Source: Amphiscolops sp. MND2022 (lineage: Eukaryota). From it: DNA of 64,000 nt. Positions 1,376 to 35,340 of this stretch are shown here, piece after piece (the stretch's first letter is position 1; each line of letters starts with the position of its first letter). Below the pieces are notes generated by a model, which was not told the origin of the DNA, did not search any database, and saw nothing but the letters and a program-made list of their open reading frames with translations. A program made the translations under genes and the position numbers. The stretch covers positions 11,844,001 through 11,908,000 of the forward strand of contig OZ076409.1 of assembly GCA_964187785.1 (NCBI GenBank), given 5' to 3'.

Positions 1376-1451
1376 AGCCATTACAGTGCTCGAACCTGCA
1401 TCTTAAGATAAATCTAGCTGTCAAGTGCCTTAACCACTAGACCAAATGGTT
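1376..1451 (-). pseudogene. tRNA-like / SINE-head sequence
   Basis: 76 nt with TGGTCTAGTGGTTAAGGC (A box/D arm), GGTTCGAG (B box) and CCATT/AATGG pairing. The anticodon loop is oversized and the T stem is mismatched. Confidence 0.55.
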
Positions 1452-1486
1452 AATTTAATCTTACCAATCTCTCGACTTATCACTGA

Positions 1487-3425
1487 TGTCGCAGGCTGCC
1501 GCCTGTGATGGTACAAGGATCACTACTACCGCAGAAGGACAGGAAATAGCGGCCGGAACTCTACCAATATTTTAGAGGTAAACATTAAAAACACAAACTT
1601 TGCTATTATTTTTTAGTCTACAAGTTGTACCTGTTATCGTTGCAAATTTTACACTTAGTATATAGTTTGCTGATATTAGTCCGTTAATGCCAACATTTGA
1701 AAATTCAGATGATGTATTGATAATTGTAAGAGCTAGAAGTGCAGTATGAACACGCTGTTATAGCAATAGATAGGCAGCTAGAAAGCGTGAAGGAAACGAG
1801 TTCAAGTGAACGTAACTCCAATTCCGGAGACGTCACTTGAGCTCAACCTGTTAGCCAATCATATTCATCCATTTGAGTAATAGTAGTGCTGTAGTTAATT
1901 AATGACCGGTTTAGGCCATATGCCGGAACTTCATCTTTATCTATTGGCGCTTTAGTCAAACGGCCGGTTCCGGCCTTAATGTTCAGATGAAAGAATATTA
2001 GTGCAAGCACTGTTGCGTTTCGTTAAATAGTAGTCTAATCACGTTGCTGTACTAATTAAACGTTCATTTTAGCTAATTGGCGCTTTATTTTATCCATTCC
2101 AATATTAGGCCGAATAAAGCCATTTGCCTGACTTCTATCCTCTGTTGCTGTGACCAATTGGACAGTGGCCGGTTGAGGCCCCTTTTCAATACTATTATTC
2201 AGATGCTAATTACAATCATTTAGTGTACTTTAAATGTCATGTATAGTTACAAGTACGTCGTAAAGACTCATGTAACTCTTGAAATTAATTGATGTAATCA
2301 ATACCAATGTATGATGTTGCTACCAATATTAGTCCAAAGGACATGTCTGACCATATTTACTAGTTGACACGTGGAATCTGTGTGCATATTATATAAAGGA
2401 AAATATGTGCTTTTACATGTAACATTGCTGTATACAAGTTGATCTAGCCTGCTAACGGGGCACGTGCCGACACGAGATTGTCAGCATTCCTGAAATATTA
2501 GCGGCGTAAACATTTTAATCGATGCTATTTGATGTACCGTGTGCCTTTTGAATACTTGTTATAGTTGTCAAAACAGGAATTTGATCGGCCGCGTGACCTT
2601 ACGATCACGATTCGGCGGCACTTTGATGCTTACATAGTCGAGTTAAGTCAGGTGCTTTCGGAATGTGTTTGTAACATTTTTTGGCTGTTTGCATCATGTT
2701 TATCCCGCCCAAGGAAGTATATATAGGGGCAACTTCCTTTGGGTGGACACAATCTTGTTTTGCTCCTAATACTCAGTTGATAACACTTTTCCGTTAACGA
2801 CCACCAATTCTGTTTTCCGGTTCTGATAATTTAACTATTCAACCCGGTTTAGTCTTGATGCCTACTACTAGAAAACAAAAGAAGGCTAGGAAATCTAGAG
2901 GATTGGAAATTCTCTCTGATATTGAAAACCTTGATATAATGTTAGGGGAGAACCATTTTGATGGAACAGAAAGAGACGAAAGTCTCGAAAGGACATCTAT
3001 CAGGAGACAAGAAAGTGTCACTAGCAATAACTTAGAAAATGAAGGACTAGGCCCTTATGCCGATTATGGAAACCATAGGGTCGGGACTAGTGCCATTCAT
3101 GACCAGAATTCAGCAAGTGTAGATTCTCAAGCTGAGATTAACAAACTGTCGAGCGAGTTGAACTCCAGAATATCTAGGGAGATGGATGTGATGATGAATA
3201 GTGTCAGTTCTCAAATCCAAAGAGCTATAAATGATGCCATTTATAACCAGGTTTTACCCCAAATCCAGAACGTTATTATGGCCGGCTCAGGACAGGAGAC
3301 TAGAAGGGGATGGGAGAGATCCGATGAGAGACCGGAAAGTTATTCCGAAGTTCAGCACAACGTGAAAGCTAAAACTACTCTCAACAGTGAACACGGTGAC
3401 AAAAACCACCGTAATGGTCACGACA
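1487..3425 (+). repeat. 5' LTR of element 1 (1939 bp)
   Basis: Direct repeat of 15967-17883 with TGTCG/CGACA inverted termini. By eye it differs by ~17 substitutions and 2 indels (23 bp and 1 bp). Confidence 0.97.
2718..2725 (+). promoter_or_regulatory. Putative LTR TATA box, inside an inverted repeat CCCAAGGAAG...CTTCCTTTGGG
   Basis: TATATATA 140 nt upstream of the gag ATG. Equivalent TATA boxes lie 131 nt (20165) and 147 nt (60600, minus strand) upstream of the gag ATG in elements 2 and 3. Confidence 0.65.
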
Positions 3426-4552
3426 TGGTGACAGGAGACAACGAATCTCCAAATCCAGTTCCTGAGTTTCTCACAGGACGAATCTCATCCAGAAATCATC
3501 TCGACAGGTCCTTTGAGGACATCCACCTCGACACGACGATCCCAGCACAAGAGAGAATCGCTACGGCTGCTGACTCCGACCCCATCACTCGACTGGCAGA
3601 CGTCTTAACTACAATGCAGAATAGACGGACAGCCCAACAACTCACCATACGCCCAGTCAACTCAAATACGATGACATTCGATGGCAAAAGTGAGAAATTC
3701 GAGCTGTTCGAAGACCTATTTCACACTATGATCAAGATGCAGCCAGAAATGACTGAGCAAATGAAGATCAATCACTTCCACTCTTTATTGAGGAAGAATG
3801 CTCTTCAGACGTTCAGAAAGATCAGCTCAAGCAACCGACAAACTCTAGAGGACGTATTAGTCATCTTTAGACGAAAATACGTCAAGCCCGAGTCACAGGC
3901 GACTGCCAAACATAAATGGCACCGTCTAGTCTTCGATCCCAATACGATGAAGCTGCCTGATTTTCTCGAAGAATTGAACCAGGGAGCCGAGAAGGCGCTT
4001 GGCGATCATGCACAGAAAATGATTGACAGCTTGCTCTACGCAAAGCTGCCACCTAAGTTGAAGCGGTCTGTCAACATGGCCAGATTAGAAAATGGCTCAT
4101 ATAATGAAATTGTTGCTCATTTGGAGAGAGAGTTGGAACTCAATGCCCTTGAGGAATCAGATGACCTACCAATGGCCACAATGACCTCCTCGACTACAAA
4201 ATCTAAAACTCCTCTGCCCACTGGGCAAATGTCAGACATTACTTGCAATTACTGCAAGGAAAAAGGCCACATGGTCAAAGACTGCGAAAAACTGAAAAAG
4301 AAAAAAGAGAAAGATGCCCAACAAGGCAAGTCGACGCAGAAGAAAACATACCCCGAGTGTGGCTTTTGTGGCAAAAAGAACCACCCGGAAGAACGATGTT
4401 GGCAAGGTGCTGGTGCACATCTTAAACCCAAACGCACTAGACCTGATGACTCAACTGAAAATAAGCCCAATCCAAAGGCTCAGAAACCTCAGACCAAACC
4501 GACATCATCGAGCTCCCAATCCTCATATCCTAATGATGAGTCAAAAAACTAA
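2858..4552 (+). CDS. gag: Gag (capsid-like region plus two CX2CX4HX4C zinc knuckles), starting inside the 5' LTR
   Basis: Intact ORF with FDGKSEKFELFEDLF, CNYCKEKGHMVKDC and CGFCGKKNHPEERC. Confidence 0.93.
   Translation: MPTTRKQKKARKSRGLEILSDIENLDIMLGENHFDGTERDESLERTSIRRQESVTSNNLENEGLGPYADYGNHRVGTSAIHDQNSASVDSQAEINKLSSELNSRISREMDVMMNSVSSQIQRAINDAIYNQVLPQIQNVIMAGSGQETRRGWERSDERPESYSEVQHNVKAKTTLNSEHGDKNHRNGHDMVTGDNESPNPVPEFLTGRISSRNHLDRSFEDIHLDTTIPAQERIATAADSDPITRLADVLTTMQNRRTAQQLTIRPVNSNTMTFDGKSEKFELFEDLFHTMIKMQPEMTEQMKINHFHSLLRKNALQTFRKISSSNRQTLEDVLVIFRRKYVKPESQATAKHKWHRLVFDPNTMKLPDFLEELNQGAEKALGDHAQKMIDSLLYAKLPPKLKRSVNMARLENGSYNEIVAHLERELELNALEESDDLPMATMTSSTTKSKTPLPTGQMSDITCNYCKEKGHMVKDCEKLKKKKEKDAQQGKSTQKKTYPECGFCGKKNHPEERCWQGAGAHLKPKRTRPDDSTENKPNPKAQKPQTKPTSSSSQSSYPNDESKN
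3426..3438 (+). promoter_or_regulatory. Primer binding site TGGTGACAGGAG
   Basis: Starts with TGG immediately after the LTR terminal CA, and the identical 12-mer occurs at 20674 in element 2. It resembles Leu-tRNA-type PBSs, but the primer identity is not verified. Confidence 0.85.
4543..4549 (+). promoter_or_regulatory. -1 ribosomal frameshift slippery site A-AAA-AAC
   Basis: Sits directly before the gag stop, and the -1 frame is open into pol. The same heptamer is at 21664-21670 in element 2. Confidence 0.85.
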
Positions 4553-7500
4553 CTTCGCCACGACTCCAATATAACGAATTAATATCTGTCCGACATTACA
4601 TCAGATCGGACCCTCAAACGCAAACCTTCCACCAATACAATCAGCAATTGATGGGCTATCCCTCTGTTGTCTGGCAGCAGCAGATGGAAAAAGCTACCAT
4701 CATCACCTACAATAACACCGATTTATTCCAGAAACCAATTCCTGTTTGGGACCCTGATTACACCACTACCTTCACCACCCGCTTCAGGCCCATTCCCCTA
4801 ATCGATGATTACAATCCAACATACATCGATCCAGACTACGGCAGAGATCCCTATCGAGACACCGAGCTTTACAACCAAGATTCACTGCAATTTCAATATG
4901 TCCTGGACGATATTGACTATTACAATAGAACAATCCACGAGAACCCTCCAATTACCCATAGCAAGAAAACACGAGCGCTAATTGAAAACTGGCAAATGAA
5001 TGATGGCACAAACCATCCAGTGTTCCCAAACCCACTGGGGACCGAGAATCCTGAAAACAGTGGTAAAATCACGCCACAATCATTACTAGACGAAAAACAA
5101 TTCCAAAACGTACTCATCACCAGAGAAGGTGAACCAGACTGTATACCCCTGTCAACCAACATCAACCTCAAATGCAAGAAACGCATGCTTTATTTCCCAA
5201 TGGACTTTGGGGAGTTGACCATTGATGGATTAATAGACACTGGAGCACTGTCCAGTGCAATCCCTGAAATGGACCTCCGGAAAATCCGCCTTCTATCTCC
5301 ACAATCTGTTATCCGAGAAGGTCCGCCTCCGAACTTCCAAATCATGGTCGCTAATGGGCAACTGGAAACTCCTAAGAGTACCATAGAGCTCAAATTCGAA
5401 GTTGGTGACATTGAGTTCCATGAAATCTTCATAGTAATGGAACATTTGACAGGACCGATCATTGGACTAAAGTTCCTTCAAAGAAACCATACAGTGCTGG
5501 ACATGAGACAAGGGATATTAAATTTCCCGTTCTTTTCAATGCAGCTCAAAACGGCTGACCATAAGTATTCAAATGTATTAGAACCAATTCTCAACCCTAT
5601 TGAGATAACAATTCCACCAAATGATAAAGTCCTAATTAGGACCAATTCCCTACTCTACCCTGAGAATGCTGTCACTGGAATTTTGCAACCGAGCGACCTT
5701 CTACATGAGGAAGGCGACATCACATTTTGCCCAGCTTTGGTCACTCTGAATGACGGCAATATATTGATACCAGTGAACAATTTCACAGACCACCCTTATA
5801 AACTCAAAAAGGGACTACATATTGCCAATTTCTCTGTCATGACGCCAGAACAGATGAAGTATGTCAAACCGGTAGACCCGGCATCAACCTGGCACCTTTT
5901 GCAGAATGACCAGGAGCAAGCAGCCCATTATGTCAGCAGTCTCATCAAGACCAATAGAAATCCACAAAACTCCGAAAATTATTGGTTCCCAACTCCAGAA
6001 AACCCTGGAAACCCTGAGGAACACACACCTATACAAAAACGAATCCTACGCGAGTTACAGGCCTTACAAGACCTGGAAACACTCGACCCCACTACAGATG
6101 CAGAATCGCGTGCGAAATTCTTAGAAAACTTTGACTGGAAGGACTCCACCCTTACTCCTGAAGAGAAGGAGAAATTTGAGGAATTATTAGTGGAATTCCA
6201 TGACATCTTTGCACGACACCGATTTGATATAGGCATGAACGAGGAATTCAAGGTGAAACTAACGCCTAAGGACGATTCCCTAGCCTATAGTCAAAGCCTC
6301 CCAGCTCCTATCAATCTGAAGGAGGACATCCTAGTCGAATTAGCCATGTTACACAAGTATGGCATCATCACCACCCTACCGTTCTCGAAATATGCATAAT
6401 AACTACAATGCCATTTTCGAAATACGCTAGTCCAATTTTCGCACAAAAGAAGCCGAATGGGAAACTCCGACTCTTGGTTGACTTGAGAAAAATCAACAAC
6501 CTCATCTCGGATGGTTACATCAACAATAATCACCCCGTCAGCACACTAGTTGATGCTGCCCAACACTTGGCAGGCAAAAAACTGTTCTGCAAATTAGACT
6601 GTTCGCAGGCATACCACTGTCTACCAATGGCAGACCAACGTTCAATCGAAATGTTGGCTTTCAATTTTGCCAGTCGCACATTCGCTTACAGACGTTTAGC
6701 ACAAGGCCTTAGCCGGTCACTATCCGCATTCTCGAGTTTCATGAGAGAATACCTTGACAAAGTCATTGAAGCGGATCAGTGTGCCCAGTATGTGGACGAT
6801 ATCGGCATCGCAGCCAACGATGTTGACCACCTCATGACGAACCTGAGAGCTACGTTCAAATGCATCCAGGAAGCAGGCCTTAAGTTAACAATGCACAAAT
6901 GTCACTTCGGTGCAAAAGAAATTGATTTTCTCGGACGGACTATTACCCCACAAGGCGTCAAACCCCAGAAACAGAATGTGCAAAACTTTCTGGAAAAGAC
7001 CAAATTCCCGAAGTCGAAAAAGTCTTTACAGCGATATTTGGGATTCCTAAACTACTACAGGAATTATGTCCCAAGACTCTCCGAACGCCTTGCTCCATTC
7101 TACAAGATGCTCAAAAGTGACGAAAAGGTCCTAGTATCGAAAGAATTAGTCCAACAATTCGAAGAAATCAACAGAGCACTAGACAAATGTTGCGACTTGG
7201 CCCTACAGCAACCCATTCCGAGCAAGCAAATAGCACTAATGACTGATGCAAGTTTTGGTGCAGCCGGGTACGCGGTCCTAATCGAAGACGACCCAAGCCA
7301 GAAATTTACGTCACTCAGAAAATCGTATGCACCGGTCGCATATGGATCAAAAACCTTCACCCCAGCACAGATCAAGATGTCAATTTATGCCAAGGAATTC
7401 CTTTCAATTTTATTTGCATTCAAAGAATTCCGACATATCTTCTGGGGTGCGCCGAAACCGGTCATCATCCTTACGGACAACAAAGCTGTCACGAGATTTT

Positions 7501-9787
7501 TCCAAACAAAAATAATACCCCCAGCCCTGTGGAACGCGTGTGATTTTGTCATTCAGTTCAATTTTGCCATAGCACACATCCCAGGGGCACAAAATACAGC
7601 TGCCGACTATTTGTCCCGATTGGAAGCAGATCCGAAGGGCAAATTGGTGATGAAAATTCGTGAAGACGTACAAACACTACCAATCGAAATCAATGTCCAA
7701 TCCGCAGGGGTGTCACAAGAAGAACAAATCTTCTACACCAATGACGACGACGAGACAGAAGAACAGTTTTGGGCAAAAAAGAAGCAATCAAGAAAAACCC
7801 AGCAACTGATGAGCCCACAGTTACTATACAAACTCTGTCAACAAACCAGGTCAAGCAACACCCCGACATACAAGTCCGATTGAGGAAAACGAACCAGTTC
7901 ATTATTGAGCAATCCAAAGATGCAGTATTACAACAATTGAAGGCAAAACTCCTTCATGAAGATTATTCAGAAAACATACTGCAACAGGATGCCCGATACA
8001 GACACTATGCAAACAATCTGGAACGAATTGTACTAAAAGACGAAATCCTGACAAGGCAATACTTTGATGAAACAGGGAACGTTAAATACCATCAAATTCT
8101 GCTCCCGCAACATTTACTTCAGGAACTGCTTAAGTCTCTCCACGGGACAGCGCATAAGCATCCTGGGATTTCAAAAATGTTGCAGGAAATTAGACAGAAG
8201 TATTACTACCCTAGCATGGCTAAACGCGTCAAAAAGTGGGTAGAAGGGTGCGAACAATGTGCCAGAGACAAAAGACTCCCTAACGCAACGATCACACCTG
8301 AACTGCTCAACTTGCCCGAATGGGACCTTGGACCTGAAGACGCCATGCAAATCGACCTATTGCCGAACCTTCCCCCAAGTGCAGGATATGAAAATGTCCT
8401 AACGGCAATTGATGTATTCTCCAGATATTTGTTCGCCTATCCCCTTACGGACGCATCAGCGATCAATGTAGCAAAAGCGCTCATTGACATCATGACTAAA
8501 CACTCATATCTACCAACGACTCTTATCACTGATAAAGGTACTGCATTTACTTATACAATTATTGCGGAGGTTACGCAGATTTTGGGCATCACACTCAAAT
8601 GTGCAACGACAAAACACCCGCAGACAATTGGGAAATTGGAGCGAACTCATGCCTCATTGAAAACAAATCTCAAAATGGCATGTGGGGAATATCGCCGACA
8701 ATGGCACAAATACTTGCCATTAGCAGTACTGAATCATAATACTATTTATCACGCCAGCATCGGGTGTGAACCGACGAGAGTATTTCACGGAAGAATTCCA
8801 TTCAATATACTGGATCACAAGCTTAGAAATAATCCAAACGAGCAGATCAACCCCACAACCGAATTTGCTGAAGAAATCCTAAACCGGACAAAAATCATGA
8901 TTGACAAAACGAAGCAAAACATTATGCAGTCGTATATCAAATACAAAGAATATTATGACCGCAAAGCAAAAGCCGCTCCACTAAAGGAGCACGAATACTG
9001 TTTTGTCCTACAGCCGAAAGCGGATAATCAAGGATCAAAAATTCCCTTCCGCGATTACCGTTGGGTTGGACCATTTGTAGTCCAAAAAGTTTTGCCAAAT
9101 GAAAACTATATAGTACGACGCATCAACACAAACAAAACTCAAATTTTACATCGGATTCGCCTTAAGAAGTTTGTCCCCAATCAACCGCTTGAAGACAATT
9201 TCCGTGAACAACGGTTACAGCCAGATGAAGAAATCGTCATTCCGCAAGATGATTTATATATCATAACGTGGGAAACCGACTTTGGCGAACAGCTAGTTAC
9301 ACGAGGAAGCGAGACTATTCCGACTAGCACGCCGAATGGCGAACGGCCGAATCCGGCAGAAACGAATACAAATGACGTAACCGAGAATGAAGCGGATTAC
9401 ATAATCACGCGAGAAGTAACGAACAACGGCAATGCAGCGCACAGCCGGAATGACCACTTAAGCGATGACGTCACTGAAAGAAATGAATCTACTGCAATCA
9501 CAGAAAATGAAGATTCTGACTGGCCGAATCCGGCCGTTTCCCCAAAAAACCAAGAAAAATCATTGCCGAATACGGCCGATAGACCGGAACCCGATGAAAA
9601 TTTTTCAGAAAGAAACTACTTGACGAATGAAAACCATACACAAAATTCTCCAAATAGGGGGGATGATATTATCGTGCCCGAAATATCTGAAAACGATGCT
9701 AGAAATGAAAACCTGAACCCTAGAGGAGGAAAATATAACCTCAGGCCTAACCCCAACCCAAACTACTCAGAAGACTTCAGATACTAA
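4549..9787 (+). pseudogene. pol: Pol (protease, dUTPase-like segment, RT, RNase H, integrase with GPF motif) with two frame disruptions (~6395 and ~7775)
   Basis: LIDTGA; YVDD; TDAS...TDNK...ADYLSR; LHGTAHKH...CEQC; QID/TDKG/LER catalytic triad region; WVGPF. Split over ORFs 4648-6399, 6408-7883 and 7769-9787. Confidence 0.95.
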
Positions 9788-10012
9788 GAATTGAATTTCT
9801 TCCCGAAAATGGGAATTCTCTTCTTTTCATTCTTTTTATCTTTTTTTGCCCCTCAGAGAATCTTTTACAATAAATAATTGGGGCATTACAAGTGATCCCT
9901 TACAAAGAAATAAATATGGGATCAAGGCAACAAAGAACAAAACGAAAATAAATACGAAACAGAAAATGAACAAGAGATACACTTTACAAGTACATAAATA
10001 CATATGTACACA

Positions 10013-13000
10013 TTAGTTCTTAGAAGATCCCTGGACAAGTTTCTTGGAGGCGGACGAGATAGTGGAACTACTGCTGCCCATTCTTTTCCGTTGGGTCCGG
10101 GAAGGAAACTTTACGGCAAGAGTCATCCGGCACGGAAGAGGCAGTTCCTTTCCCCAGACGAACAGCCCGAGTGGGGGAAACAGCAGTGACGGCCTTATAG
10201 GAGGCAAGAAGGCTCTTGTAGATCTTGGACCTACCGAACTCATCCACAAAGGTCCATGGATCGTAATCAGGGGAGAAAGCGGAACGCTCGAAGGAAGAAC
10301 TGAATTGGCATCAGAGCAACAATACGAAATGGAATCAGGCACGCAAGAAAGGTAACTCTGACAGGGCACTACCAGGTCAGCAAAACGGCCTCGGTGTCCA
10401 AAAGTGTCAACACTCCCAAAAGATACTGGAGGATATTGGGGACTTTGACCTGTCAAACACAAGCAGCACAGCTTGAAGAGATGGAAAATGTGCTCATGAG
10501 TTTGAAAAAACTCGAGCCGCATCAGGAAGTCTATGAGGTCACTGGAATTTTCCTTGAAATCAAAATCTGGAGGATAATTGACTCGCAGGTGATCCAACAA
10601 AGCCAAATACTCATCTCGACAGATGTTCTCATTCTCACTGGAGACCCAAGAACGAAGCTGAAAGGTCGAGTGTAGCACCTCAAAATGCCGGAGTCCGACC
10701 TCAGTCGGCCTCTTGAAAAGGACAAAAGGGTCAAAGGCGGCCAACCCCTTGATCACCTCGGAACTCAGGCCGGCTTGGTTGAGGACCTGCTTGATCAGGT
10801 ACTGAATGAAGTGCAGTCCCTCTTTGATAAAACTGCTAGTTGTTTCTGCAGCTGTCTTATCAATGGCGGCCTTCTCGGATTTTTTGTTCAGATGAACAAC
10901 ATCAGCACACTGTTTGCTGGCAGTAGCTATCCGATTTGTCAATCGGTGCCGGATAAGGAAATCTTCCTCACTGATGAACTTTCCTTCGCTCACGTCGAAA
11001 TTAAGGAGAAGGAACCACGAATTCTCGAGAGGGATGGTTTCTGGCAAGTAGCATCTGGCGCATAGCTTGGAGACGAAACGACAGACTTCTCCACAGAGGA
11101 AAAATGACGCATCTCGTCGGCCTTGCAGATTGACAACGAAACTGGAAACATCTGGAAATACAACGGACAAGATCATGAAAGGAACAAAATGTTCACGTGA
11201 ACCCATGACAATATGCCTACTATGCTAGTAGCCCAAAGAATCAAGGACCGTCCAGATAATGCCCTAAAGTATCGATATGGACATGTAGCGGTATACTCAC
11301 AATCACTGATTATGCGTTGGAAGAGTTTCAACTTGACGACGAAGAAAGAGTCGCAGCTGAGAGACCACTCGAAACTCTGCACTTGATTGTGGACCCCCTG
11401 CATTCCTTGATGTGGAGTGTGTGATGTCAAGTACTGCCTGACTGCCTTCCAATGTTTTACGAGTTCCCGGCAGAGGTTGGGTAAATTCGGCAAGTCCAGT
11501 TTGCAAGTATCAATGGCCTAAACGAACCCAAATTGTCTTTTGCCCGTACCTACCCCCTAACCCTTTGCGCCTTATGTTTGAACTTAATATACTAACTTGT
11601 GCTAGCTCAGGGGATTGCAGGACCCAGTCCTCGCCAGTAGCTGCTCCAAGTGAAACCATGAGGCATTTCAGAACAGAGAAGAAGTCTATTCTGCCAAACA
11701 CACTGTAAGTTGGCTTGTGCATCATCTTCTGGAGCTGCAGGTGCTCGAAGCGAAAGCAACTCTGGACAGAGGGAACCAGAGGGAAGAAAGCATTATGGTC
11801 GATAGTCTGGATCAGCTCCACTGGACATCCTGAGCAAGCAACTATATCGGCCTTGGTGGACACTACTGAGAGAAGTCGGGAAAGAGACCCCAGCTCCCCA
11901 GTGAGATCAGAGGAAGGAAGCCCACTCCGGCACACGTAGATTCGACAGAGAGTGTCGCCCTTCCAGAATTTGACAGACATGAGTCTGTTCACGCCCTCAT
12001 CCTCAAACTCGATGGCAAAGTGCTGTGTGGTAGCCATCTGCTCCGCTAAATCATTCATTGCACAATTGAAAATGTGCTGGAAGATGGCCTGGAAAGGAAA
12101 AGGAGGATTACGAAATGTGTGGAGGGCTTTAGCCTCCCTCAAGCAGTACGCAAACTCAAAAGAGAACTTACCGAAATTCTTTCCTCGCCCCAATCGAAGT
12201 CGCAGTAGCTGATCTGGTAATTGGTCAAAGAGCCTATTTGAGACCACAATTTGCGGAGCATTCCAATATCTCCAAGTTGTTGTACGAAGTTCCCGATGAG
12301 ATGGATCTGCGTCTTGGCCCTTGATTCAGGGGTGACAAGTGTGGTTGACGTACCTTTTATGAAATCATCATGAAAAGGGAAGCGTTCTCCGATGTCCACC
12401 AGCTCGACGTGCATGAAGTGGCGCATCTCCTTTGCCAACTCTATCTCTGAAAGGATCTTCCCATTACGGCCTCTCACTCGATGTTGCACTTTTCCGGACA
12501 CGGAGTGGACGCTTTTAAGGTGCTCGTAGCGCCATCTTTGATCCCGTCGGAGGTGCTTCTCAGTCCTGTGGTGTCGCAAGATTTCTAAAGTCCCCTTAGT
12601 TTTCACGGAGATATTCTTTTTGCATATATGGCACCACACCATATATGGATTGTGAAGGGGATCTGCTGGTCCGGAAATGAATGAGCGCGTCCAACCGATC
12701 TTAGAGAAGAACTCCTCTCTCATAGGGACACCTCGAGTCTGCTTGCGTCGCTTCCTTTTGGGCGCTTTACCCGAACTTGAAGCCAAAGGCGGGGCGGGAG
12801 AAGTTTGAGTCCGCAACTCAGAAAGAGTGGCATCAAGGCTTGACTGCTCCGCAGATTCAAAGCCTGCTTGGGAGGGATCGACTTGTGTAGTTTTGCGGGA
12901 AGTTGAAGCAGGTCTGAAAGGCTCCTTGAAGGCCTGTGAGATGAGAGCCATCTCCCCAGAACTATCAGTATCGTTGGAGGAGTCCAGCCCTCTGTCTTCT

Positions 13001-14383
13001 TGCCCTGAACTTGATCCAGCAGACGTATCGGTTCCCGATTCAGGAAAATTCTCAGAGCGTGAGCTGTCTTCAGAATCGCTATGCAGACCAGGTCCTGGAG
13101 TTTGGGCTCTTGGCCTGACTCGGAAATGATCAGTTCGGGAACTGGAAGTGACCGGCGCTCCGCGAACTGCCCCAATCACCATCTGTTCCATGGCAGTAAA
13201 GGACATTTTCAACGTCTCATCAGTAAGAACTCTCAAAAGATGATATACTTGTGGCTCAGTAAAAGCCACTGTTCTATGGCCGAGAGGGAAATTGATGGTG
13301 GTAGCATCCTCATCAAAGTACTGTTTTAAAATGGCCCGGCTGCGGCCGGAGAGCTCCGTGACTTTGGAATCTTGCCCTGCAGGCGTTGACGTTGACGGAC
13401 GCATGATATCGGGACGATGGATAGAAGTATCAACTGATGATTCTCCTGCAGTTTCAGTCACATTTCCTACTGGCTGGAAATTGTATAGGGCAGGTCCACT
13501 TGCCTGGCTGGATGTGTCACCGGCTTCCTCAGTCCCAGTCACGTCGTCCAAATATATCACATTCGTGACTCCCGTTGGCAGTTTGGGGGCATCACATACA
13601 GAGGAACTCTCATCAGTCTCATGCTGAAGGAATGACGCTGCTGACACGTTGGCAGAAGTTCCGCAAGTTGTCAACAACTCTGGCAATGCCGTCAGAGAGG
13701 AGGGAGCAATCGTTAGACCGGCTTCTAGTTGTGTTAAATTCAGCCCTGCAGACTCACTGGGCAAGTTCTTGGTTGGAGTGCTAGTTTGGAAAAACAATGT
13801 ATGATTTTGGGGTTCAATCCCAGCAGCAGACGGACCTTCAGTGGCACTCTCTTCAATCTCCTGTTCCCTGATTTCGGAACCCTTGGCAACTTGTCCCTCT
13901 TCCTGTTCCTGGGCTTGTTCAAGAAACAGAACTTTCTCATCCGCATACGCAGTAACGTCAACGTTACTGTCAGGACTGCCAGGCGACCTCGGAGGTCTTG
14001 TTGGTGGGAAGGGTGGAGGCGATGGTTGCGGCCTACGGACAACGTTGGACACTCCTGCAGAAGTAGTAGTCAGGACACGCTCGCTGGGAATATCTGCTGA
14101 TGTGTTGGCTTGGGCTTGAGGATCATCTCCTGGCTGATTTGCTAAACAAAAACAGATGAAATTTGGCGGTGAGCTTCCTTGAAAGAAATCCATTTCACCG
14201 CATTAGAAAACTTCCGGAAGTGCTTGAAAATTTGAATGGAAACGTTATCACGTGTTCATTGACGGAAACAGGAAGCATTTTGTGAACAAATTTAACCCTG
14301 ATCAAGTTAGATTTTTCAAAGATCTAGATTTAGATCAAGATTTAGTTCAAAAATAAAACAAACCAACCTTCAGACGAAGACAT
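10013..14383 (-). CDS. Antisense five-exon accessory gene, 1277 aa model: low-complexity N-terminus, BED-type zinc finger and hAT-transposase-like body. Exons 14383-14368, 14141-12172, 12088-11597, 11517-11301, 11151-10013
   Basis: Four GT-AG introns (donors GTTGGT, GTAAGT, GTTAGT, GTGAGT) are phase-compatible, and the exons total 3834 nt with no internal stop. Zinc finger W...WCHICKK...LRHHRTEKH. Confidence 0.8.
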
Positions 14384-15272
14384 TCTGGGGCAAGACTGAT
14401 TGTAGGGAATGAGTCCTTGTTCGGCTGTAATGGATAAGGGAACTTGGCCGAGTCCGGCTGAAGAAGGAGATCCGGGATATTCCAAAGAGAAGAGCTGACG
14501 GAAGAAGAGCTGGACGTACAAGGATGAATCTCAGTTGGAAGAATACAAATGAAAGAAACAAATGTAGAGTAATCAGAAATGGAATTGGATTGGAATTTTA
14601 ATGTAAGAGAATTGAAGAGTTGGAGTTCGTGGCTGAAGAATATTACCAGACTAATATTATGGATTATCTACATATTGATTCTGTACATGGAGTCTGCCAG
14701 CGAAGTGTACAAAGAACTTTGTTATTTACAGCTTATTTAGTTTGAGGCCGGTTATGGTCGTTTGCCCTGTTTTGTTTTGCCGTTCCGTTCAGTTGTCTTA
14801 GTTACCTTTTAGTTAGAATTTTCGCCATCTTGGATTACTTGGATTTATTATTTTCGCCATTTTTATTATTTAATTTTGCAATTTATCGAAGCTTAAAGCT
14901 GATTGGCTGAAGCCATTTTGAAAGAATTCCGCGTCGCGTGCCGTTAAGCGCTCTCAGGCAAACTGTTAATTACCCACTTGAAACGGGTGAAGATAATATT
15001 TACAACTCAAGCGTCATTAACACCTCTCAGAGTGATGGTGCTGATAGGGGGTAAACACTGAGTTATCAAAGGATGCCGACTAATTATAAAATTCCATTCA
15101 GGAATGTTAACGTCGGATCAGGGCGATTTACCGATAACTCGACCGCCAAAAACGAATTGCCGGGAAAAAGCCCGAGTCGACTAAATTTTTGAGTTGGTAA
15201 ATTCATTCCACTTTGAAATCTCACTCAAGCTAGTTAACTTTCCCAATCAGCAAAATTGCTAAGAAACTCATA

Positions 15273-16055
15273 ATGCAGAGGTATAACCTAACTAAAAAGC
15301 TCTTTGATCTTGAAGAAGACTCAGAAAGTTCAGTGGATTCAGTTATCTACATCTCAAGTGACAGTGAGAATGAAGTCTCAAGTTCCTGGGACTCAGACTG
15401 GTCCACGGATACAGAAGAGATCATAGAAAGAATAGAACGAGAGGTGAAAGCAGCTCCAATCCCTATAGCGAGACGCGGGATGACGACGGAAGATTTAGAC
15501 GACGAGATGACAGCTGGACCAAGCAGTGCATGGCCTGTTCCGCCCTCTACCCCTAAACTGGGATTCGAGTATTTTAACAAGGAAATGTGCTTGGCTCCAT
15601 CGAAAAAACAAAGAAAATCAAAAGTCGAGCTCTGTGCAACTGTTACCCGTTCTGCAGTCCCCACAGTCTCCTCCCGACCATGAAAGGGGACCGAGCATTG
15701 ACACCCCTCTTGCGCAGTCAACCTCTGGATCTTTCTATGCGTCCTATCATGTGCAAAATATCGAGCCTTACCAGGATGTGAGCCAAAATTTGCACACAGG
15801 CTGTATGGTATGTGGCAAGTCGAGAGATCAAATAAAAGCAGAAAAGGTGAACTGGTACATGCAAAGATCGACACCTAGCAGTAAGCCGCTTATATTACCG
15901 CTCTACGACGAGAGGCTTATGAAAATGGCTTGAACGCAGGAAGCTTACTTTTCCTAACACCCGCAGTGTCGCAGGCTGCCGCCTGTGATGGTACAAGGAT
16001 CACTACTACCGCAGAAGGACAGGAAATAGCGGCCGGAACTCTACCAATATATTAG
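15273..16055 (+). pseudogene. Sense accessory ORF of unknown function (acidic Ser-rich N-terminus, CMVC motif), two frameshifts, ending 89 nt inside the 3' LTR
   Basis: The C-terminus AYITALRREAYENGLNAGSLLFLTPAVSQAAACDGTRITTTAEGQEIAAGTLPIY* is conserved at protein level in the copies at 62020-62150 (-) and 57547-57635 (+). Confidence 0.75.
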
Positions 16056-17883
16056 AGGTAAACATTAAAAACACAAACTTTGCTATTATTTTTTAGTCTA
16101 CAAGTTGTACCTGTTATCGTTGCAAATTTTACACTTAGTATATAGTTTGCTGATATTAGTCCGTTAATGCCAACATTTGAAAATTCAGATGATGTATTGA
16201 TAATTGTAAGAGCTAGAAGTGCAGTATGAACACGCTGTTATAGCAATAGATAGGCAGCTAGAAAGCGTAAAGGAAACGAGTTCAAGTGAACGTAACTCCA
16301 ATTCCGGAGACGTCACTTGAGCTCAACCTGTTAGCCAATCATATTCATCCATTTGAGTAATAGTAGTGCTGTATTTAATTAATGGCCGGTTTAGGCCATA
16401 TGCCGGAATTTCATCTTTATCTATTGGCGCTTTAGTCAAACGGCCGGTTCCGGCCTTAATGTTCAGATGAAAGAATATTAGTGCAAGCACTGTTGCGTTT
16501 CGTTAAATAGTAGTCTAATCACGTTGCTGTACTAATTAAACGTTCATTTTAGCTAATTGGCGCTTTATTTTATCCATTCCAATATTAGGCCGAATAAAGC
16601 CATTTGCCTGACTTCTATCCAGTGGCCGGTTAAGGCCCCTTTTCAATACTATTATTCAGATGCTAATTAGAATCATTTAGTGTACTTTAAATGTCATGTA
16701 TAGTTACAAGTACGTCGTAAAGACTCATGTAACTCTTGAAATTAATTGATGTAATCAATACCAATGTATGATGTTGCTACCAATATTAGTTCAAAGGACA
16801 TGTCTGACCATATTTACTAGTTGACACGTGGAATCTGTGTGCATATTATATAAAGGAAAATATGTGCTGTTACATGTAACATTGCTGTATACAAGTTGAT
16901 CTAGCCTGCTAACGGGGCACGTGCCGACACGAGATTGTCAGCATTCCTGAAATATTAGCGGCGTAAACATTTTAATCGATGCTATTTGATGTACCGTGTG
17001 CCTTTTTGAATACTTGTTATAGTTGTCAAAACAGGAATTTGATCGGCCGCGTGACCTTACGATCACGATTCGGCGGCACTTTGATGCTTACATAGTCGAG
17101 TTAAGTCAGGTGCTTTCGGAATGTGTTTGTAACATTTTTTGGCTGTTTGCATCATGTTTATCCCGCCCAAGGAAGTATATATAGGGGCAACTTCCTTTGG
17201 GTGGACACAATCTTGTTTTGCTCCTAATACTCAGTTGATAACACTTTTCCGTTAACGACCACCAATTCTGTTTTCCGGTTCTGATAATTTAACTATTCAA
17301 CCCGGTTTAGTCTTGATGCCTACTACTAGAAAACAAAAGAAGGCTGGGAAATCTAGAGGATTGGAAATTCTCTCTGATATTGAAAACCTTGATATAATGT
17401 TAGGAGAGAACCATTTTGATGGAACAGAAAGAGACGAAAGTCTCGAAAGGACACCTATCAGGAGACAAGAAAGTGTCACTAGCAATAACTTAGAAAATGA
17501 AGGACTAGGCCCTTATGCCGATTATGGAAACCATAGGGTCGGGACTAGTGCCATTCATGACCAGAATTCAGCAAGTGTAGATTCTCAAGCTGAGATTAAC
17601 AAACTGTCGAGCGAGTTGAACTCCAGAATATCTAGGGAGATGGATGAGATGATGAATAGTGTCAGTTCTCAAATCCAAAGTGCTATAAATGATGCCATTT
17701 ATAACCAGGTTTTACCCCAAATCCAGGACGTTATTATGGACGGCTCAGGACAGGAGACTAGAAGGGGATGGGAGAGATCCGATGAGAGACCGGAAAGTTA
17801 TTCCGAAGTTCAGCACAACGTGAAAGCTAAAACTACTCTCAACAGTGAACACGGTGACAAAAACCACCGTAATGTTCACGACA
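15967..17883 (+). repeat. 3' LTR of element 1 (1917 bp), carrying a second copy of the gag N-terminus (ORF 17316-17963)
   Basis: Direct repeat of 1487-3425. Confidence 0.97.
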
Positions 17884-18149
17884 GTTTGGTACATGACTTA
17901 TTGTTGGAAAATAATTACCGTAGAACATGTTTAAAGCTTGAGGCTTCTACGTTTTTTTGCTAGCAAAGCTTTTCATTTGATCATCTTCTGTTTCTGTTGC
18001 AGAGAGGTAAAATGATAATCTCATTAAAATCTGGATATCATTCATTATCCGAGATAAAAATAAATTGTTTTTGAATGGCCTCATTGATTCCCTAACCTAG
18101 GATAAGAGACATAGCAGGGCAACAATCGAACTCTGTACCATTTTTGCAG

Positions 18150-18324
18150 GTACTCTCCTGTTAACAACACTTGGGAGACTATTTCCAACATGCGAGTACC
18201 ACGTATTGATTGTGGAGTATGCTTGATGGGTGATAGAATCTATGTGGTGGGAGGATACTGTAACAAAGATGAAGATCGGGAGACAGTGGAGGTGTACAAC
18301 CCTGATACAGATGTGTGGACTGAA
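18150..18324 (+). CDS. Host internal exon encoding a Kelch repeat (Kelch-domain protein)
   Basis: Acceptor TTTTTGCAG and donor GTAAGT. Translation YSPVNNTWETISNMRVPRIDCGVCLMGDRIYVVGGY...VEVYNPDTDVWTE fits the Kelch consensus. Confidence 0.9.
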
Positions 18325-18759
18325 GTAAGTCGAGCTTGGTATCCGTTGATAATTTTGTTCAACTTTCCGAGCGGTAAATGTGCTCGTTCATGCCTCCGAA
18401 TCTCAGTATGATCAGCGAAAAGTGATTCACAGCTATTATTGGGGGCATTAGAATACCATTGTTTAGTTAAGCACGAAGTTGAAGGAAACTCCCAACTAGC
18501 ACACTCGATGATTTGGATTGTTGAACACTAATACGCGTGAGTGTGAATCCAATGTTTGAAAAGTACTCGCAGGCTCCCCTTTTCTTGCCTTGTCTGGGAA
18601 ATTGATGCCGAATTTCTCGGAGAGAAAGAGCTCCATTGATTGATTAAAGTTGGACAATCTGCTGACATTAAGTTCATCCTTTTGGTGAATTGACTGGCAC
18701 TCCAAATCTTCGCTCAATCACTTTTTCAACGGAGTTCAACGGCTATTAAAGAACGTAAG

Positions 18760-20673
18760 TGTCACGACCTGCACCGGTCGTAATTTTACTTGCTGCTCTG
18801 GAAAACCGGGATTCGGCAGAGGACACGGACAAGGGCAGAGTAAATACTTTTAAACTTTGTTAAACTAATCCAATTCTACTTACAGTACAGCTAAATAAGT
18901 GCGAATAATTTTCCAAATACAGAATTCAACGTAAGCGTTACGGAAGATTTTCAGAAATGACTTTAAACTAGCTAAAACTTCCGGTCTAATGTTTTCACAC
19001 GCAACACCGTTTTAGTTCCGGTTTTATCTTCTGAGTTTTCCATTCCAATCTAAATACTAAAACAAAAACATTTTTGCAAACGGGATAATTTTGGCGCTCC
19101 ACACTAAAAAGAAAGCACAGAAACGACATTTAACTCCGAGATCCCAACGGAGTCCATAAGATCTAAAATGAAAGAGCATACAAAAATAGAGTGGAAATGT
19201 ATTCCAATATTGAAGTAGTTGTTAAATATCCACTTAAAACCGCAGTCAAGTGATTTTAAGTAAAAGTTTACAACGTTATGACAGCGTCACTCAACTAGGC
19301 TAGCAACAGGTGTTTCTATTTTTACGGACCAATAGCGTCGCTCGCTGGCGGAATTATCTGAGCTCAATCCAATAGAATTGCGCTTGGTTGCCCCTAGCAA
19401 CGCTTACAAGCTAAGAAAAGAGAATAGAATCGCCTACGCTCTCCGTTTTCATTCGCCTGCTATTGCTGCTCAACTATAACCAATCTTAATACGTACGGAG
19501 CGCTTACGGAGCGGATTGTAAAATTGTATTCCGCCGCTCAGCTATAAGCAATCTTAATACATACGGAACGCATTCGGAGCAAATTGTAAAAACAGCAATT
19601 ATGAAGTATTGTTCTAAACAGAATTTAAACGGGGTTTTTCTGCATTGACGCATTTTAATGGTTTCAGGAATAACTTTGCATAAGATTTTTACAAATAAGT
19701 ATTTTTGTCGTTTCAAGATGTGTAACAGTGGTTCTAAGGTGTTCTAGTGAAATTCTTTCAGCATCATTTATCCTCTCTAATAACTAGATATTTCCATTAT
19801 CCAAAATTCATAATTCCGTTTCATTTCCGTCGTCATTTTTGAGTGTCATTCTTTTGCTTCGGATCTCAATTTCCTAACTTGAATGCTGACTAATTGATCA
19901 CGCCGGCGTGCCTACGCTGATGAAGATGTCAGCTAGACTTCTATTTTGCCGCAATTTTGAAGCTCAAACAGGAAAAATGAGGATTATCTGAACAAAAATG
20001 ATTTCAACAAAGTTTTACGGAATAGTGACGCAACTAGGAGTCTCGATACCTGAATTTATGACGCCGAGTTGAAATAAGTTGAATCCTTAGCGCTTTTTGT
20101 TGAACAAACCCGATTTTATGATACCTAGGAATTTTTAGGTGAGGAACAAATGATGCTGGGAAGGTATAAATATGTAAAACAAACCTGTTTTGTACCAATT
20201 AGTCCTGTTCCGTTATCGTAACGTGTTCAAAAGAAAACTTAAATCTTTGAAGAATTCAACCTTTCCAAAGATACTTTCTCTCTCTTTTGACTAAAATGAC
20301 AACCAGAAGTCAGAAAAGGAAAGCTGTAGCTGAGCTATTCTCTGGTGATTTTGAAACCTCCGTAAACGAAAACTCCCCGTCTGAAAGCCTTGTAGCTAGT
20401 TCTAGCAAAGTTCCTAGAATAGAACCTGAGAGTCTGACTGAGATAAAAACTCTCTAAGGAAGGAGATTATGTCTGATCTAACTAAAATACTTGCGGAAAA
20501 CCAAAAGGAAATGCTTAAACTGATAGCACTTTTAAACAAGAAACAAACTGTCTACATGAATGCTCAAGACTCGGACTCTGAACCAGAGAATGTCTCCGTA
20601 GCAAGGACGTTTACCCCCGTCAAAATTCATACTGCGACTAACTCTAAAACAACACCGATAAACAGTCGTAACA
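18760..20673 (+). repeat. Putative 5' LTR of element 2 (1914 bp)
   Basis: TGTCACGAC...GTCGTAACA inverted termini (8/9 match), followed by the PBS. Length is similar to the element 1 LTR, but no second copy confirms the left end. Confidence 0.75.
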
Positions 20674-21673
20674 TGGTGACAGGAGTCCTCAATGACTCTA
20701 CCAACCAACCCACGAAAAGATCAAAACAACAGCGCGCATCCAACGAGCAAACAAAAGACCGTCCTTCAACATCTAAAATACTGTTCGCGCCACAACCTCA
20801 AACATTTCCATCTACCAATCTACTTCCGATGCCGAAAGCACACACTGCTTCGCTTCCAGTCTTTTATGGTAAGTCCGAAAAGTTTGAACTTTTTGAGGAC
20901 ATATTCCGAAATAATATCAAAATGTATCCTCACCTAACCGAGATACAAAAGATCAACTACTTCCACTCACTCCTACGAGGAAACGCGCTGCAAGCGTATT
21001 GCAAGAAGTCATAACGGCATTCAAACGTCGTTATGGCGATTTCCAATCATCTGGTAAGGCAAGATGCGAGTGGGACGCGCTGCATTTTGACCCCACTAAA
21101 CAGAAACTCCATGAGTTCCTTGACACCCTGCAAAAAACTGCAAAAGAAGCATTCGGCTTAGAAGCACAAATGTTTATCGATAAAGCAATCTACGCCAAAA
21201 TGCCGGATCACGTCAAGAAAATCCTCAACAGAGCATAATTGGAAGATAACCCCTACAATGACATAGTTTTGCATCTTGAGAGGGAAATGAGATTAAACGG
21301 ACTAGGTGCGCCCGACGAAACAACCCTAGTCCCACTCAACACAGTGGACGCAGTAGTGACGGACGATAAAAAAGACCAACAACAACGAGGTCATTGCTTT
21401 CACTGTGGCAAATATGGCCACTATAAAGCACAGGGTCGCAGACTCCAACGAGAGCGTTACAATATCGCCAAAACAAACACAAAAGACCCAGCCCAAAACG
21501 AAGCACCCAAACCCAAGTGTGACACATGTTGCAAGATGCACAAAACTGAGAACTGTTGGAACGGAGCCAATGCGGCAAATGACCCCGGAAGGAAGAAACG
21601 AGAATTCACGATTCCAACCAACAAAATCAGTGAACAACCTGTACCCAGACTGTCCTCCCAGCCAAAAAACTGA
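20296..21673 (+). pseudogene. gag: gag of element 2 (frameshifted), starting inside the LTR
   Basis: MTTRSQKRK start; FYGKSEKFELFEDIF is homologous to element 1; CFHCGKYGH knuckle. Confidence 0.88.
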
Positions 21674-27192: not shown

Positions 27193-27392
27193 NNNNNNNN
27201 NNNNNNNNNNNNNNNNNNNNNNNNNNNNNNNNNNNNNNNNNNNNNNNNNNNNNNNNNNNNNNNNNNNNNNNNNNNNNNNNNNNNNNNNNNNNNNNNNNNN
27301 NNNNNNNNNNNNNNNNNNNNNNNNNNNNNNNNNNNNNNNNNNNNNNNNNNNNNNNNNNNNNNNNNNNNNNNNNNNNNNNNNNNNNNNNNNNN
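27193..27392. other. Assembly gap (200 N)
   Basis: Run of N. Confidence 1.
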
Positions 27393-33300: not shown

Positions 33301-35340
33301 TTTTTTTCTCCAGACTACAATCTCACTCTGATTGGTCCACTTTGGAGCCCTGATTGTGTCTTCTTTCCAACGCGCTAAAAATCGTTTGTCAGACTTGAAT
33401 AATTTAGGAGGTTTTGAAGTTTAAAGTTCTATCACCAGATTTTTGGATGGATCCGGAAATTTTCTCGTCAGTTTGGGGATAATTGGAAACTTCATTCTAA
33501 AAGATCTATTTTTGAACGAAATTCATTGTTTTAGGTCTGGGTAATTTTTATCATCACGAGATTTTTTGTAATAGCACCATGCCCAAACCAGAGGGATTTA
33601 ACAAATTTTATGCAAACGATTGAGGTTCCTAAAAAAGAAATATCATAGAAATATCTTCCTAGCATAGGTATTTTTGAGATGTTTTCTTGGTCCATATAAA
33701 TCAAAATGTCCAATTTTGTCACTATTTTCCATTATTTGCTGCTCGGGAATAGACTTTCGTTGAATCCAAAGTTCATGATTCAAAAATTGCTGGAAAACGC
33801 AAAAATACAATTTTTGACAGTTGTTTGTAACTTTCATTATTTTCCGCCCACATATAATGGGAAAGAAAATCATAATCTGTGTTGCGTTTTTTTTTCAAAC
33901 TCTGCCAATTTTCCATCCACTTCTTTTGACTGTTTGTTACTTGACTATTTTAGTTACTAAGGCTCACTTGGTGAAGGCGTGGAAAATATCCCGCTGCTTA
34001 GGGGGCGTCTTGTTCAATTTTTAGATATTTTTGTGGACATGGAGGTTGGTAGTTTAAAAAACCTTCGGTAACTTTCTTTCCCCCGTTCTTTTTTATTGAG
34101 AGAATAGTAAGTTTTTAAATCCAAAATGACGTGCATATGAACAGAAACTAAGAGTTTTTGTACCTTGGGGATGATGCTTCAGTTAGCACTGGACCTGTAT
34201 TATTGCGATACCACGTGTTGTAATCTAATATCTCACGGTTAAAACAGTTCTTTGTGCCAAGACTTTAACTCAGTATTCATCGACGTATCTATTTCTAAGC
34301 TTCGTATCAAATCATAATGATGGTATCAATACAACAACATAAAGTGTCAGTAATTAGAGTTTTATTGGTAAACAAGACCAAGTCTCTCTGTCTAAGTCCG
34401 TATGTTACGGTATGAACTGAATCTACGGTAGAGGTTACGACGGCAGCGGGCGTTTTGTTCAATTTTTAGATGTTTTTGTGGATATGGAGGTTCAGAGAGT
34501 TTGAAAAACCTACTGTAACCTTCTTTCCACCGTTCCTTTTTCTTGAGGGAATAGTAAGTTTTTAAATCCAAAATGACGTACATATGAACAGAAACTATGA
34601 GTTTTTAGAAGGCGCTTTTCTAGTGAATAGTGCCCGACTCTTACAGTGGCGAGCTTTTTTTTTCTCCAGACTACAATCTCACTCTGATTGGTCCACTTTG
34701 GAGCCCTGATTGTGTCTTCTTTCCAACGCGCTAAAAATCGTTTGTCAGACTTGAATAATTTAGGAGGTTTTGAAGTTTAAAGTTCTATCACCAGATTTTT
34801 GGATGGATCCGGAAATTTTCTCGTCAGTTTGGGGATAATTGGAAACTTCATTCTAAAAGATCTATTTTTGAACGAAATTCATTGTTTTAGGTCTGGGTAA
34901 TTTTTATCATCACGAGATTTTTTGTAATAGCACCATGCCCAAACCAGAGGGATTTAACAAATTTTATGCAAACGATTGAGGTTCCTAAAAAAGAAATATC
35001 ATAGAAATATCTTCCTAGCATAGGTATTTTTGAGATGTTTTCTTGGTCCATATAAATCAAAATGTCCAATTTTGTCACTATTTTCCATTAATTTGCTGCT
35101 CGGGGTTAAACTTTCGTTGAATCCAAAGTTCATGATTCAAAATTTTTAGATATTTTTGTGGATAAGGAGGTTGAGAGTTGAAAAAACCGTCGGTAACCTT
35201 CTTTCCACCGTTCTTTTTTCTTGAGAGAATAGTGAAATTTTAAATCCAAAATGACGTGCATATGAACAGAAACTAAGAATTTTTGTACCTTGGGGATGAT
35301 GTTTCAGTTAGCACTGGACCTGTATTATTGCGATACCACG
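27393..35340. repeat. Tandem array of a ~1355-bp unit, about six copies, each with an internal ~160-bp duplicated sub-repeat
   Basis: Unit start GGGGATGATG at 27393, 28747, 30103, 31457, 32811, 34167 and 35292 (periods 1354-1356; the last unit is internally deleted). Confidence 0.97.

Follow-up and report, generated by a model that had tools for sequence, protein, structure and literature searches.

Coding sequence within a long terminal repeat (LTR) is known from several retroviruses, as in the sag gene of mouse mammary tumour virus (MMTV), the lentiviral nef and the foamy-virus bel, and an N-terminal extension of Gag is known from the glyco-Gag of murine leukaemia virus (MLV). In the yeast retrotransposon Ty1, only about a dozen gag codons stand within an LTR of 334 bp. 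The parts of the published descriptions that deal with layout place the beginning of Ty1 gag in the 5′ LTR (PMC3522557), the Ty1 primer-binding site (PBS) within the open reading frame (ORF) of GAG (PMC4974528) and the end of the polyprotein of plant CRM elements in the 3′ LTR (PMC3059260). Here, a stretch of 64,000 nucleotides from Amphiscolops sp. MND2022 (GenBank assembly GCA_964187785.1, contig OZ076409.1, positions 11,844,001 to 11,908,000 of the forward strand; hereafter the window, whose own numbering is used throughout) was analysed for elements in which gag appears to share this property on a far larger scale. It is highly probable that gag of these Ty3/gypsy-type elements starts inside the 5′ LTR, that its frame runs through a PBS for tRNA-Leu(CAG), and that it is translated, as seems likely, from a TATA-driven genomic RNA.

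The gag frame and the LTR end

Comparison of the window with itself (BLAST) revealed three gypsy-type elements. The features of the first one that matter for the position of gag are as follows.

1487–17883, plus strand: element 1, defined by an LTR pair and internal ORFs
1487–3425, plus strand: 5′ LTR of element 1, 1939 bp with TG...CA ends, pairing with 15967–17883
15967–17883, plus strand: 3′ LTR of element 1, pairing with 1487–3425
2858–4552, plus strand: whole gag ORF of element 1, ATG to stop, 564 aa
2858–3424, plus strand: gag codons inside the LTR, 189 codons in an open frame
3425–3427, plus strand: junction ATG, made of the last LTR base and the first two PBS bases, gag codon 190
3426–3437, plus strand: PBS of element 1, 12 nt, translated within M-V-T-G

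The two LTRs of element 1 are 97.9% identical over 1940 columns (BLAST) and have the termini TGTCG...CGACA. Within the same family, six solo LTRs with perfect 5-bp target duplications stop at the same ...ACA, and seven full copies (LTR pairs) have matching 5-bp duplications at both ends. A previous reading made from the sequence alone (the sequence-only reading) had placed the gag ATG at 2858, 568 nt before the LTR end, and this holds, since the LTR pair, the target duplications and the solo LTRs fix that end. The 568 nt from 2858 to 3425 consist of 189 codons and the terminal A, which together with the TG of TGGTGACAGGA (at 3426) forms an in-frame ATG, again as had been noticed. The 189-codon stretch contains no stop in this frame and 6 to 25 stops in each of the other five, and an open frame of this length was obtained in none of 20000 shuffles of the segment. 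Hence element 1 has the two properties of a Ty1-like layout: its start codon precedes the LTR end, and its frame continues unbroken through the PBS.

The frame is also kept in other copies of the family. It is open in the LTR of 23 out of 30 copies (one copy, L025, has a deleted end), and the 11 open copies that adjoin a PBS all read into gag, three of them with the full 564 aa. In 3′ and solo copies, the frame stops 1 to 70 codons into the flank. Further features were needed for a comparison between families.

17316–17963, plus strand: LTR ORF copy in the 3′ LTR of element 1, with no stop at the LTR end, running 80 nt into the flank, 215 aa (L012)
18760–20673, plus strand: 5′ LTR of element 2, a separate family; the element extends to about 25551
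20674–20685, plus strand: PBS of element 2, the same 12 nt in the same reading phase
window end, minus strand: element 3, with its 3′ LTR and part of its interior in the window and its 5′ LTR just past the window end
59859–62038, minus strand: 3′ LTR of element 3, about 2181 bp, LTR pair 99.9% identical
59764–60453, minus strand: LTR ORF of element 3, 198 codons and 1 nt to the LTR end (59859), then 31 flank codons

For element 2, the sequence-only reading had proposed the same junction phase, which is correct. The junction is present, with ...AACA directly followed by TGGTGACAGGA at 20673/20674, and a full copy of the element 2 type, in which the LTRs pair exactly as far as the PBS, confirms the LTR end. 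In 17 of 30 family copies, 126 codons (start MTTRSQKRK) are in phase with the junction ATG; the upstream part is out of phase in 10 copies, including the one in the window, and absent in 3. The window copy is broken in that only 68 codons are in phase, counted from the ATG at 20469, and the family start ATG at 20297 lies in another frame. In the element 3 family, the observation that the LTR ends in the same phase after 198 codons is confirmed: 17 out of 18 genomic 5′ copies start 198 codons before the LTR end and continue through TGGTGACAGGAG into a Gag of 569–574 aa, and all 12 of the 3′ copies examined run on beyond the LTR to give 199–229 aa. A fourth family was found by a genome search with the distant relative P0264, which is 100% identical to a locus of this genome. 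In its copy L109, 183 codons precede TTACA directly followed by TGGTGACAGGAG, within an ORF of 562 aa, nine further loci diverge directly after ...ACA, and open frames of 564–575 aa were counted from the table in about 39 of 150 scored matches.

Across the four families, 125–198 gag codons thus lie inside the LTR, and all length differences between families keep the LTR frame joined to gag. The common gag phase on both sides of the junction is due to common descent and not to independent convergence. In none of the four families was a stop codon found at or before the LTR end, and 3′ and solo LTR copies therefore run into flanking DNA, where their products end at random positions (190–259 aa).

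These open-ended copies bear on the possibility that the LTR ORF encodes an accessory protein in its own right, which 5′, 3′ and solo LTRs would all produce in the manner of MMTV sag, its continuity with gag being incidental. Such a protein would be consistent with the TATA box, ATG and open frame carried by every LTR copy (the frame is intact in 4 of 6 solo LTRs) and with the fact that public protein sets contain the LTR ORF as hundreds of short calls. However, a sag-like ORF has its own stop and lies in U3 (the unique 3′ part of the LTR), whereas the LTR ORF described here lies downstream of the promoter, as marked by its TATA box, and has no stop at the LTR end in any family, so that outside a 5′ LTR its product has a random end; moreover, every length difference between families preserves the frame into gag. 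The differences between the 5′ and 3′ LTRs of element 1 are neutral (1 synonymous difference, Sd, and 7 nonsynonymous differences, Nd), which is expected after insertion and also speaks against a protein made from every LTR. A separate accessory protein is, accordingly, very improbable.

The sequence-only reading had also raised the possibility of two Gag isoforms, with initiation at the LTR ATG yielding the longer and initiation at 3425, the junction ATG, the shorter. In each of the four families the junction codon is in frame, and its context (purine at −3, G at +4) contrasts with that of the ATG at 2858, which has a T at −3; there is also a precedent in MLV, in which both an N-terminally extended form (glyco-Gag) and a short form of Gag exist. 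But an ATG is generated automatically wherever an LTR ending in CA adjoins a PBS starting with TGG, and its phase is determined by homology, together with the fact that one of the three phases would read TGG TGA and so contain a stop. Furthermore, 16 ATGs (5 in frame, 11 out of frame) stand between 2858 and 3425, which makes leaky scanning to the junction ATG unlikely, and no internal promoter signal turned up, none having been searched for. The junction ATG, forced by CA/TGG and preceded by 16 others, is thus a weak argument for isoforms, and we regard a second, short Gag as unlikely. A single Gag starting inside the LTR is the reading followed below.

Selection on the LTR-internal codons

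The LTR-internal codons have a ratio of nonsynonymous to synonymous substitution rates (dN/dS) of 0.11–0.23 in 10 subfamily or family pairs (Nei-Gojobori method). For the LTR part of element 1 against that of element 3, Sd is 79, Nd is 116 and dN/dS is 0.15; for a pair within the element 2 family, dN/dS is 0.18. One-sided Fisher tests gave p values of 7e-15, 4e-7 and 7e-20. Neutral evolution of the LTR-internal ORF, the outcome that the sequence-only reading had named as decisive against a coding role, is at odds with these ratios and with the 23 of 30 open copies in the element 1 family.

The pattern of conservation points in the same direction. Between elements 1 and 3, the LTR ORF aligns at 70% and nearly all of U3 is unalignable. 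The first Met is invariant in an alignment of 21 diverse N-terminal sequences. The LTR-encoded parts of families 1 and 4 are only about 30% identical, yet they have two motifs in common: one consists of a basic start and, behind it, an acidic LSD-EN-D-MLG stretch, and the other is a long helix. Within this conserved helix, the use of the same codon at identical residues is ordinary (9/15 and 10/18), which indicates that conservation acts on the protein. Judged by its substitution pattern, the LTR-internal frame is real coding sequence under purifying selection and forms the N-terminal third of Gag, because its dN/dS is low, none of the four families has a stop at the LTR end and 5′ copies continue into a full Gag.

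The same data leave next to no room for the view that Gag begins no earlier than the junction, the LTR frame being open by chance or serving as a regulatory upstream ORF. The reason to consider it is that gag of most gypsy-type elements does start after the PBS. A regulatory or chance frame is contradicted by the dN/dS values and by protein motifs kept down to about 30% identity, as well as by the shuffled segments, none of which was open, and by the invariant first Met. We therefore give it hardly any credence and retain the start inside the LTR.

Two observations concern divergence within the LTRs. The U3 regions of element 1 subfamilies (1487–2717 compared with L015 and L023) are 92–97% identical, and are thus less diverged (3–8%) than the synonymous sites of the LTR ORF (dS 0.23–0.48). 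In addition, individual LTRs have a mosaic make-up of subfamily sequences (bin 300–600 of L017 and L018, the ORF end of L022).

Predicted promoter and leader

Two sequence features upstream of the gag ATG are relevant to the transcript from which the LTR codons would be translated.

2718–2725, plus strand: TATA-like box of element 1, 140 nt before the gag ATG
2745–2753, plus strand: conserved GGACACAAT, predicted transcription start and start of R (the repeated part of the LTR), about 27–35 nt after the TATA box

A TATA box is found at −139 to −156 from the ATG in all four families (near 20164 in element 2), and GGACACAAT is common to the families of elements 1 and 3. In these two families, the leader from GGACACAAT to the start codon (2858 in element 1) is free of ATGs. 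A predicted transcription start near 2750 fits the TATA box, GGACACAAT and the ATG-free leader. Driven by the TATA box, genomic RNA would then begin some 110 nt upstream of the ATG, and the LTR codons would be translated from this RNA, which would place the coding piece in R-U5 (U5, the unique 5′ part). Because the TATA box occurs in four families and is followed by an ATG-free leader, R-U5 is likely to be about 680 nt long and mostly coding. As to its origin, such a layout could have arisen by the placing of a PBS inside gag, upon which everything upstream would become U5 and hence LTR.

The leaders of families 3 and 4 contain AATAAA, at −42 and −63 respectively, which hints that R is short and that the ORF falls in U5. 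A search for poly(A)-tailed retrocopies that would mark a poly(A) site in the element 3 leader gave 0 matches. The splice-donor pattern AGGTRAGT likewise has 0 matches in the window, which is uninformative, and a comparison of positions 1400–4700 with Rfam gave no match. Among 30 element 3 copies picked for ORF identity, U3 has 5–22 variable columns per 100 nt, a figure that drops to 2 per 100 starting at −107; in a reciprocal sample picked on U3, the ORF region has only 5–6 variable columns per 100. The stretch from −200 to −108 is hypervariable in both samples. These blocks of variation are suggestive, but not decisive, of a boundary at the promoter and start site.

The LTR-encoded part of Gag

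Two marks of Gag are recognizable in the 564-aa product of element 1. DUF1759 is found at residues 274–376, with 26.2 bits against a cut-off of 25.4 (Pfam), and a CCHC knuckle is located at residues 462–476. Although the latter scores 18.1 bits as zf-CCHC, under the cut-off of 20.8 (Pfam), its pattern C-x2-C-x4-H-x4-C is visible and conserved. The LTR-encoded piece precedes the capsid-like DUF1759 region and hence stands at the position of the retroviral matrix. By this position, it would be an N-terminal accessory domain of Gag.

The piece is composed of a basic N-terminus, linkers that are predicted to be disordered and a long helix. An AlphaFold2 model of 189 residues (21 diverse sequences) contains one helix, at 86–143 (58 residues), with a confidence score (pLDDT) of 87–97, the rest being below about 60. 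The model of the whole Gag (32 sequences) has a mean pLDDT of 41.5 and is poor except for the helix at 89–143. The basic start, which resembles a nuclear localization signal, would suit nuclear localization or nucleic-acid binding, and the modelled helix may drive oligomerization. Comparisons with known proteins gave no lead: Pfam searches with the LTR-encoded parts of three families found nothing better than E 0.02, a profile of the 21 N-terminal sequences against PDB sequences had a best E of 0.31, and the best score for residues 1–190 in the ESM Atlas was 0.77.

Among gene calls on public assemblies, 251 of 571 candidates were hits; of the 120 best, the majority are proteins of 560–570 aa that fully cover the 190-aa query. 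When the 189 residues were compared with 1.84 billion representatives, 469 hits were obtained (186 below 1e-10), none of them assignable to a known family; short proteins (59–310 aa), such as 3′ and solo LTRs give rise to in gene calling, make up most of the best 150 of the 469. Relatives of 564–570 aa fully cover the N-terminal part of Gag, and a cluster look-up of six relatives returned neither names nor accessions. That gene callers recover single proteins of 560–570 aa argues that the LTR piece is part of Gag and not a separate protein.

Several points weigh against a long Gag translated from the LTR. Constraint on the LTR-encoded part is weaker than on the remainder of Gag (dN/dS of 0.15 versus 0.04–0.05), and frequent recombination between LTRs may distort synonymous divergence. 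The transcription start is a prediction made from sequence motifs, and elements 1 and 2 have neither AATAAA nor ATTAAA between the TATA box and the LTR end. In the context of the ATG at 2858, T stands at −3 and C at +4. Finally, the LTR-encoded piece is predicted to be disordered apart from one helix and matches no family, its proposed function being deduced from composition and position.

Primer-binding site and element ends

The PBS TGGTGACAGGAG is complementary to the 3′ end of tRNA-Leu(CAG), namely its last nine bases and the CCA, and the gene of this tRNA is present in the genome (L095). The 27-nt LTR/PBS junction of the element 1 and element 3 type has 1192 genomic occurrences. As for the tRNA, its 20-nt 3′ end occurs in 781+12 genomic copies, mostly in one tandem array (G000 C8, ~35.59–35.65 Mb, ~296-nt spacing), and ARAGORN accepts a tRNA at one of four checked loci that have this 3′ end (L095).

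A 5′ copy of the element 3 family on G000 C8 (recorded twice, as L068 and L110) differs from the family directly after the PBS, where five bases matching the T-stem of tRNA-Leu replace the four of the family. The change shifts the gag frame, and the ORF ends at 208 aa. The five bases look like copied primer tRNA that would have been left by plus-strand strong-stop synthesis; a junction of this type was seen in one case against 1192 normal junctions. The codons that follow the PBS show a peculiarity as well. Over the 40 codons at 3438–3560, elements 1 and 3 have the same codon at 22 of 26 identical residues, compared with 191 of 371 elsewhere in gag (Fisher p 7e-4), which hints at an RNA element beside the PBS that would overlap coding sequence.

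At the other end of the interior, no purine-rich tract was found ahead of the 3′ LTR (15927–15966 in element 1, and the equivalent in element 3), both families reading ...CACCCGCAG. Given this sequence, plus-strand priming may use an unusual site. The target duplication of element 3 is AGGGA (5 bp). The window's own copy of element 1 has no duplication (ACTGA at 1482–1486 versus GTTTG at 17884–17888), in contrast to the seven other full copies of its family, and it may be a recombinant of two insertions.

Proposed exchange of the LTR-encoded module

Two 5′ copies of the element 3 family, L066 and L067, are identical over the stretch that begins at the TATA box (−147) and reaches 15 nt beyond the PBS, whereas the interiors of their gag genes differ with a dS of 1.6. 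Because the LTR part is identical and gag is so diverged, recombination has taken place between the LTR-encoded module and the Gag core, and the switch point lies at the PBS or directly behind it. We tentatively propose, while holding it to be rather doubtful, that the LTR-encoded third of Gag is a swappable module exchanged as a unit between families, and that solo and 3′ LTRs could also feed N-terminal Gag fragments or host fusions into the cell. With R on one side of the module and the PBS on the other, the strand transfers that reverse transcription requires would exchange it as a unit. Each solo or 3′ LTR copy would amount to a self-contained promoter with a start codon and an open-ended exon, and the Gag fragments fed in this way would perhaps affect the copy number of the element itself. 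An analogy is provided by the p22 Gag fragment of Ty1, which acts on Ty1 copy number.

The layout has several implications. One stretch of about 580 nt would double as LTR end (i.e., integrase substrate), as R-U5 in strand transfer, as neighbour of the primer site and as coding sequence, and these elements could serve as a natural system for studying how a protein domain is recombined when reverse transcription makes its obligatory template switches. Each leftover LTR carries an open-ended piece of a gene that, if expressed, would be read into neighbouring host DNA, which raises the question of what thousands of solo LTRs, each with a promoter and an open ORF, do to the genes next to them. For annotation, tools that expect gag after the PBS would cut Gag by a third, and gene callers make short spurious proteins from 3′ and solo LTRs.

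Other features of the window

The interior of element 1 contains the following ORFs downstream of gag.

4651–6399, element 1: aspartyl protease ORF (Pfam, just below the curated cut-offs)
6408–7883, element 1: ORF with RVT_1 and RT_RNaseH (Pfam)
8177–9787, element 1: ORF with Integrase_H2C2 and rve (Pfam)

The pol of element 1 is thus spread over three ORFs, in the order protease, reverse transcriptase, RNase H and integrase (PR-RT-RH-IN) that is characteristic of gypsy. Terminal repeats, pol order, PBS and Gag marks are all present, and the elements are Ty3/gypsy (Metaviridae) LTR retrotransposons. Element 1 also contains two long antisense ORFs (10013–11206 and 12139–14193, minus strand), neither of which has a Pfam match.

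Element 3 (59859–64000, minus strand, together with L097) is internally deleted, with a length of ~8.1 kb and 2.18-kb LTRs that are 99.9% identical. It has an intact gag of 572 aa and an ORF of 380 aa with an integrase tail only, and is probably non-autonomous. Its LTR ORF is ~100% identical in at least 40 genomic LTR copies, from which it follows that the element spread very recently.

Element 2 is cut off by the region 27193–35312, in which a gap of 200 N is followed by at least 6 tandem copies of a 1354–1356-bp unit (96–100% identical). Between elements 1 and 2, a segment at about 18150–18335 (plus strand) resembles, by eye, an exon of a kelch-repeat host gene with a GT donor at its end. 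If so, elements 1 and 2 would be intronic, inserted in the orientation of a host gene.

Comparison with known systems

Retroviral accessory ORFs of the LTR each have a stop of their own and belong to U3, at the 3′ end, unlike the LTR gag piece described here. The glyco-Gag of MLV also differs, as it starts downstream of the PBS. In phrase searches of the literature, which returned Ty1 and CRM, no account of a long Gag segment encoded in an LTR turned up; subscription journals and Repbase reports lay outside their scope, so that this is not proof of absence. As far as their layout is given in the cited source, the plant centromeric CRM chromoviruses of group A, which are also Ty3/gypsy, are a mirror image of these elements: in CRM, the C-terminus of integrase is encoded in the U3 end of the 3′ LTR, whereas here the N-terminus of Gag is encoded in the R-U5 end of the 5′ LTR.

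The closest layout is that of Ty1 and Ty2 of Saccharomyces (Ty1/copia, Pseudoviridae), in which, to judge from the portions of the Ty1 papers concerned with it, translation crosses the LTR end and the primer site as it does here. The elements of the window differ in three respects. They belong to another superfamily, as their gypsy pol order (PR-RT-RH-IN) indicates, they use tRNA-Leu(CAG) as primer instead of the initiator tRNA-Met of Ty1, and they have 125–198 codons, a third of Gag, in LTRs of 1.9–2.35 kb. The sequence-only reading was hence right that the overlap is far longer than in Ty1, where gag begins in the LTR and the PBS lies in GAG, in so far as the cited descriptions cover this point (PMC3522557, PMC4974528). 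The Ty1 layout is thereby extended to an animal lineage of gypsy elements that is very abundant, and it now takes in an entire protein module. The arrangement is a much longer form of that of Ty1, with a third of Gag in place of a few codons.

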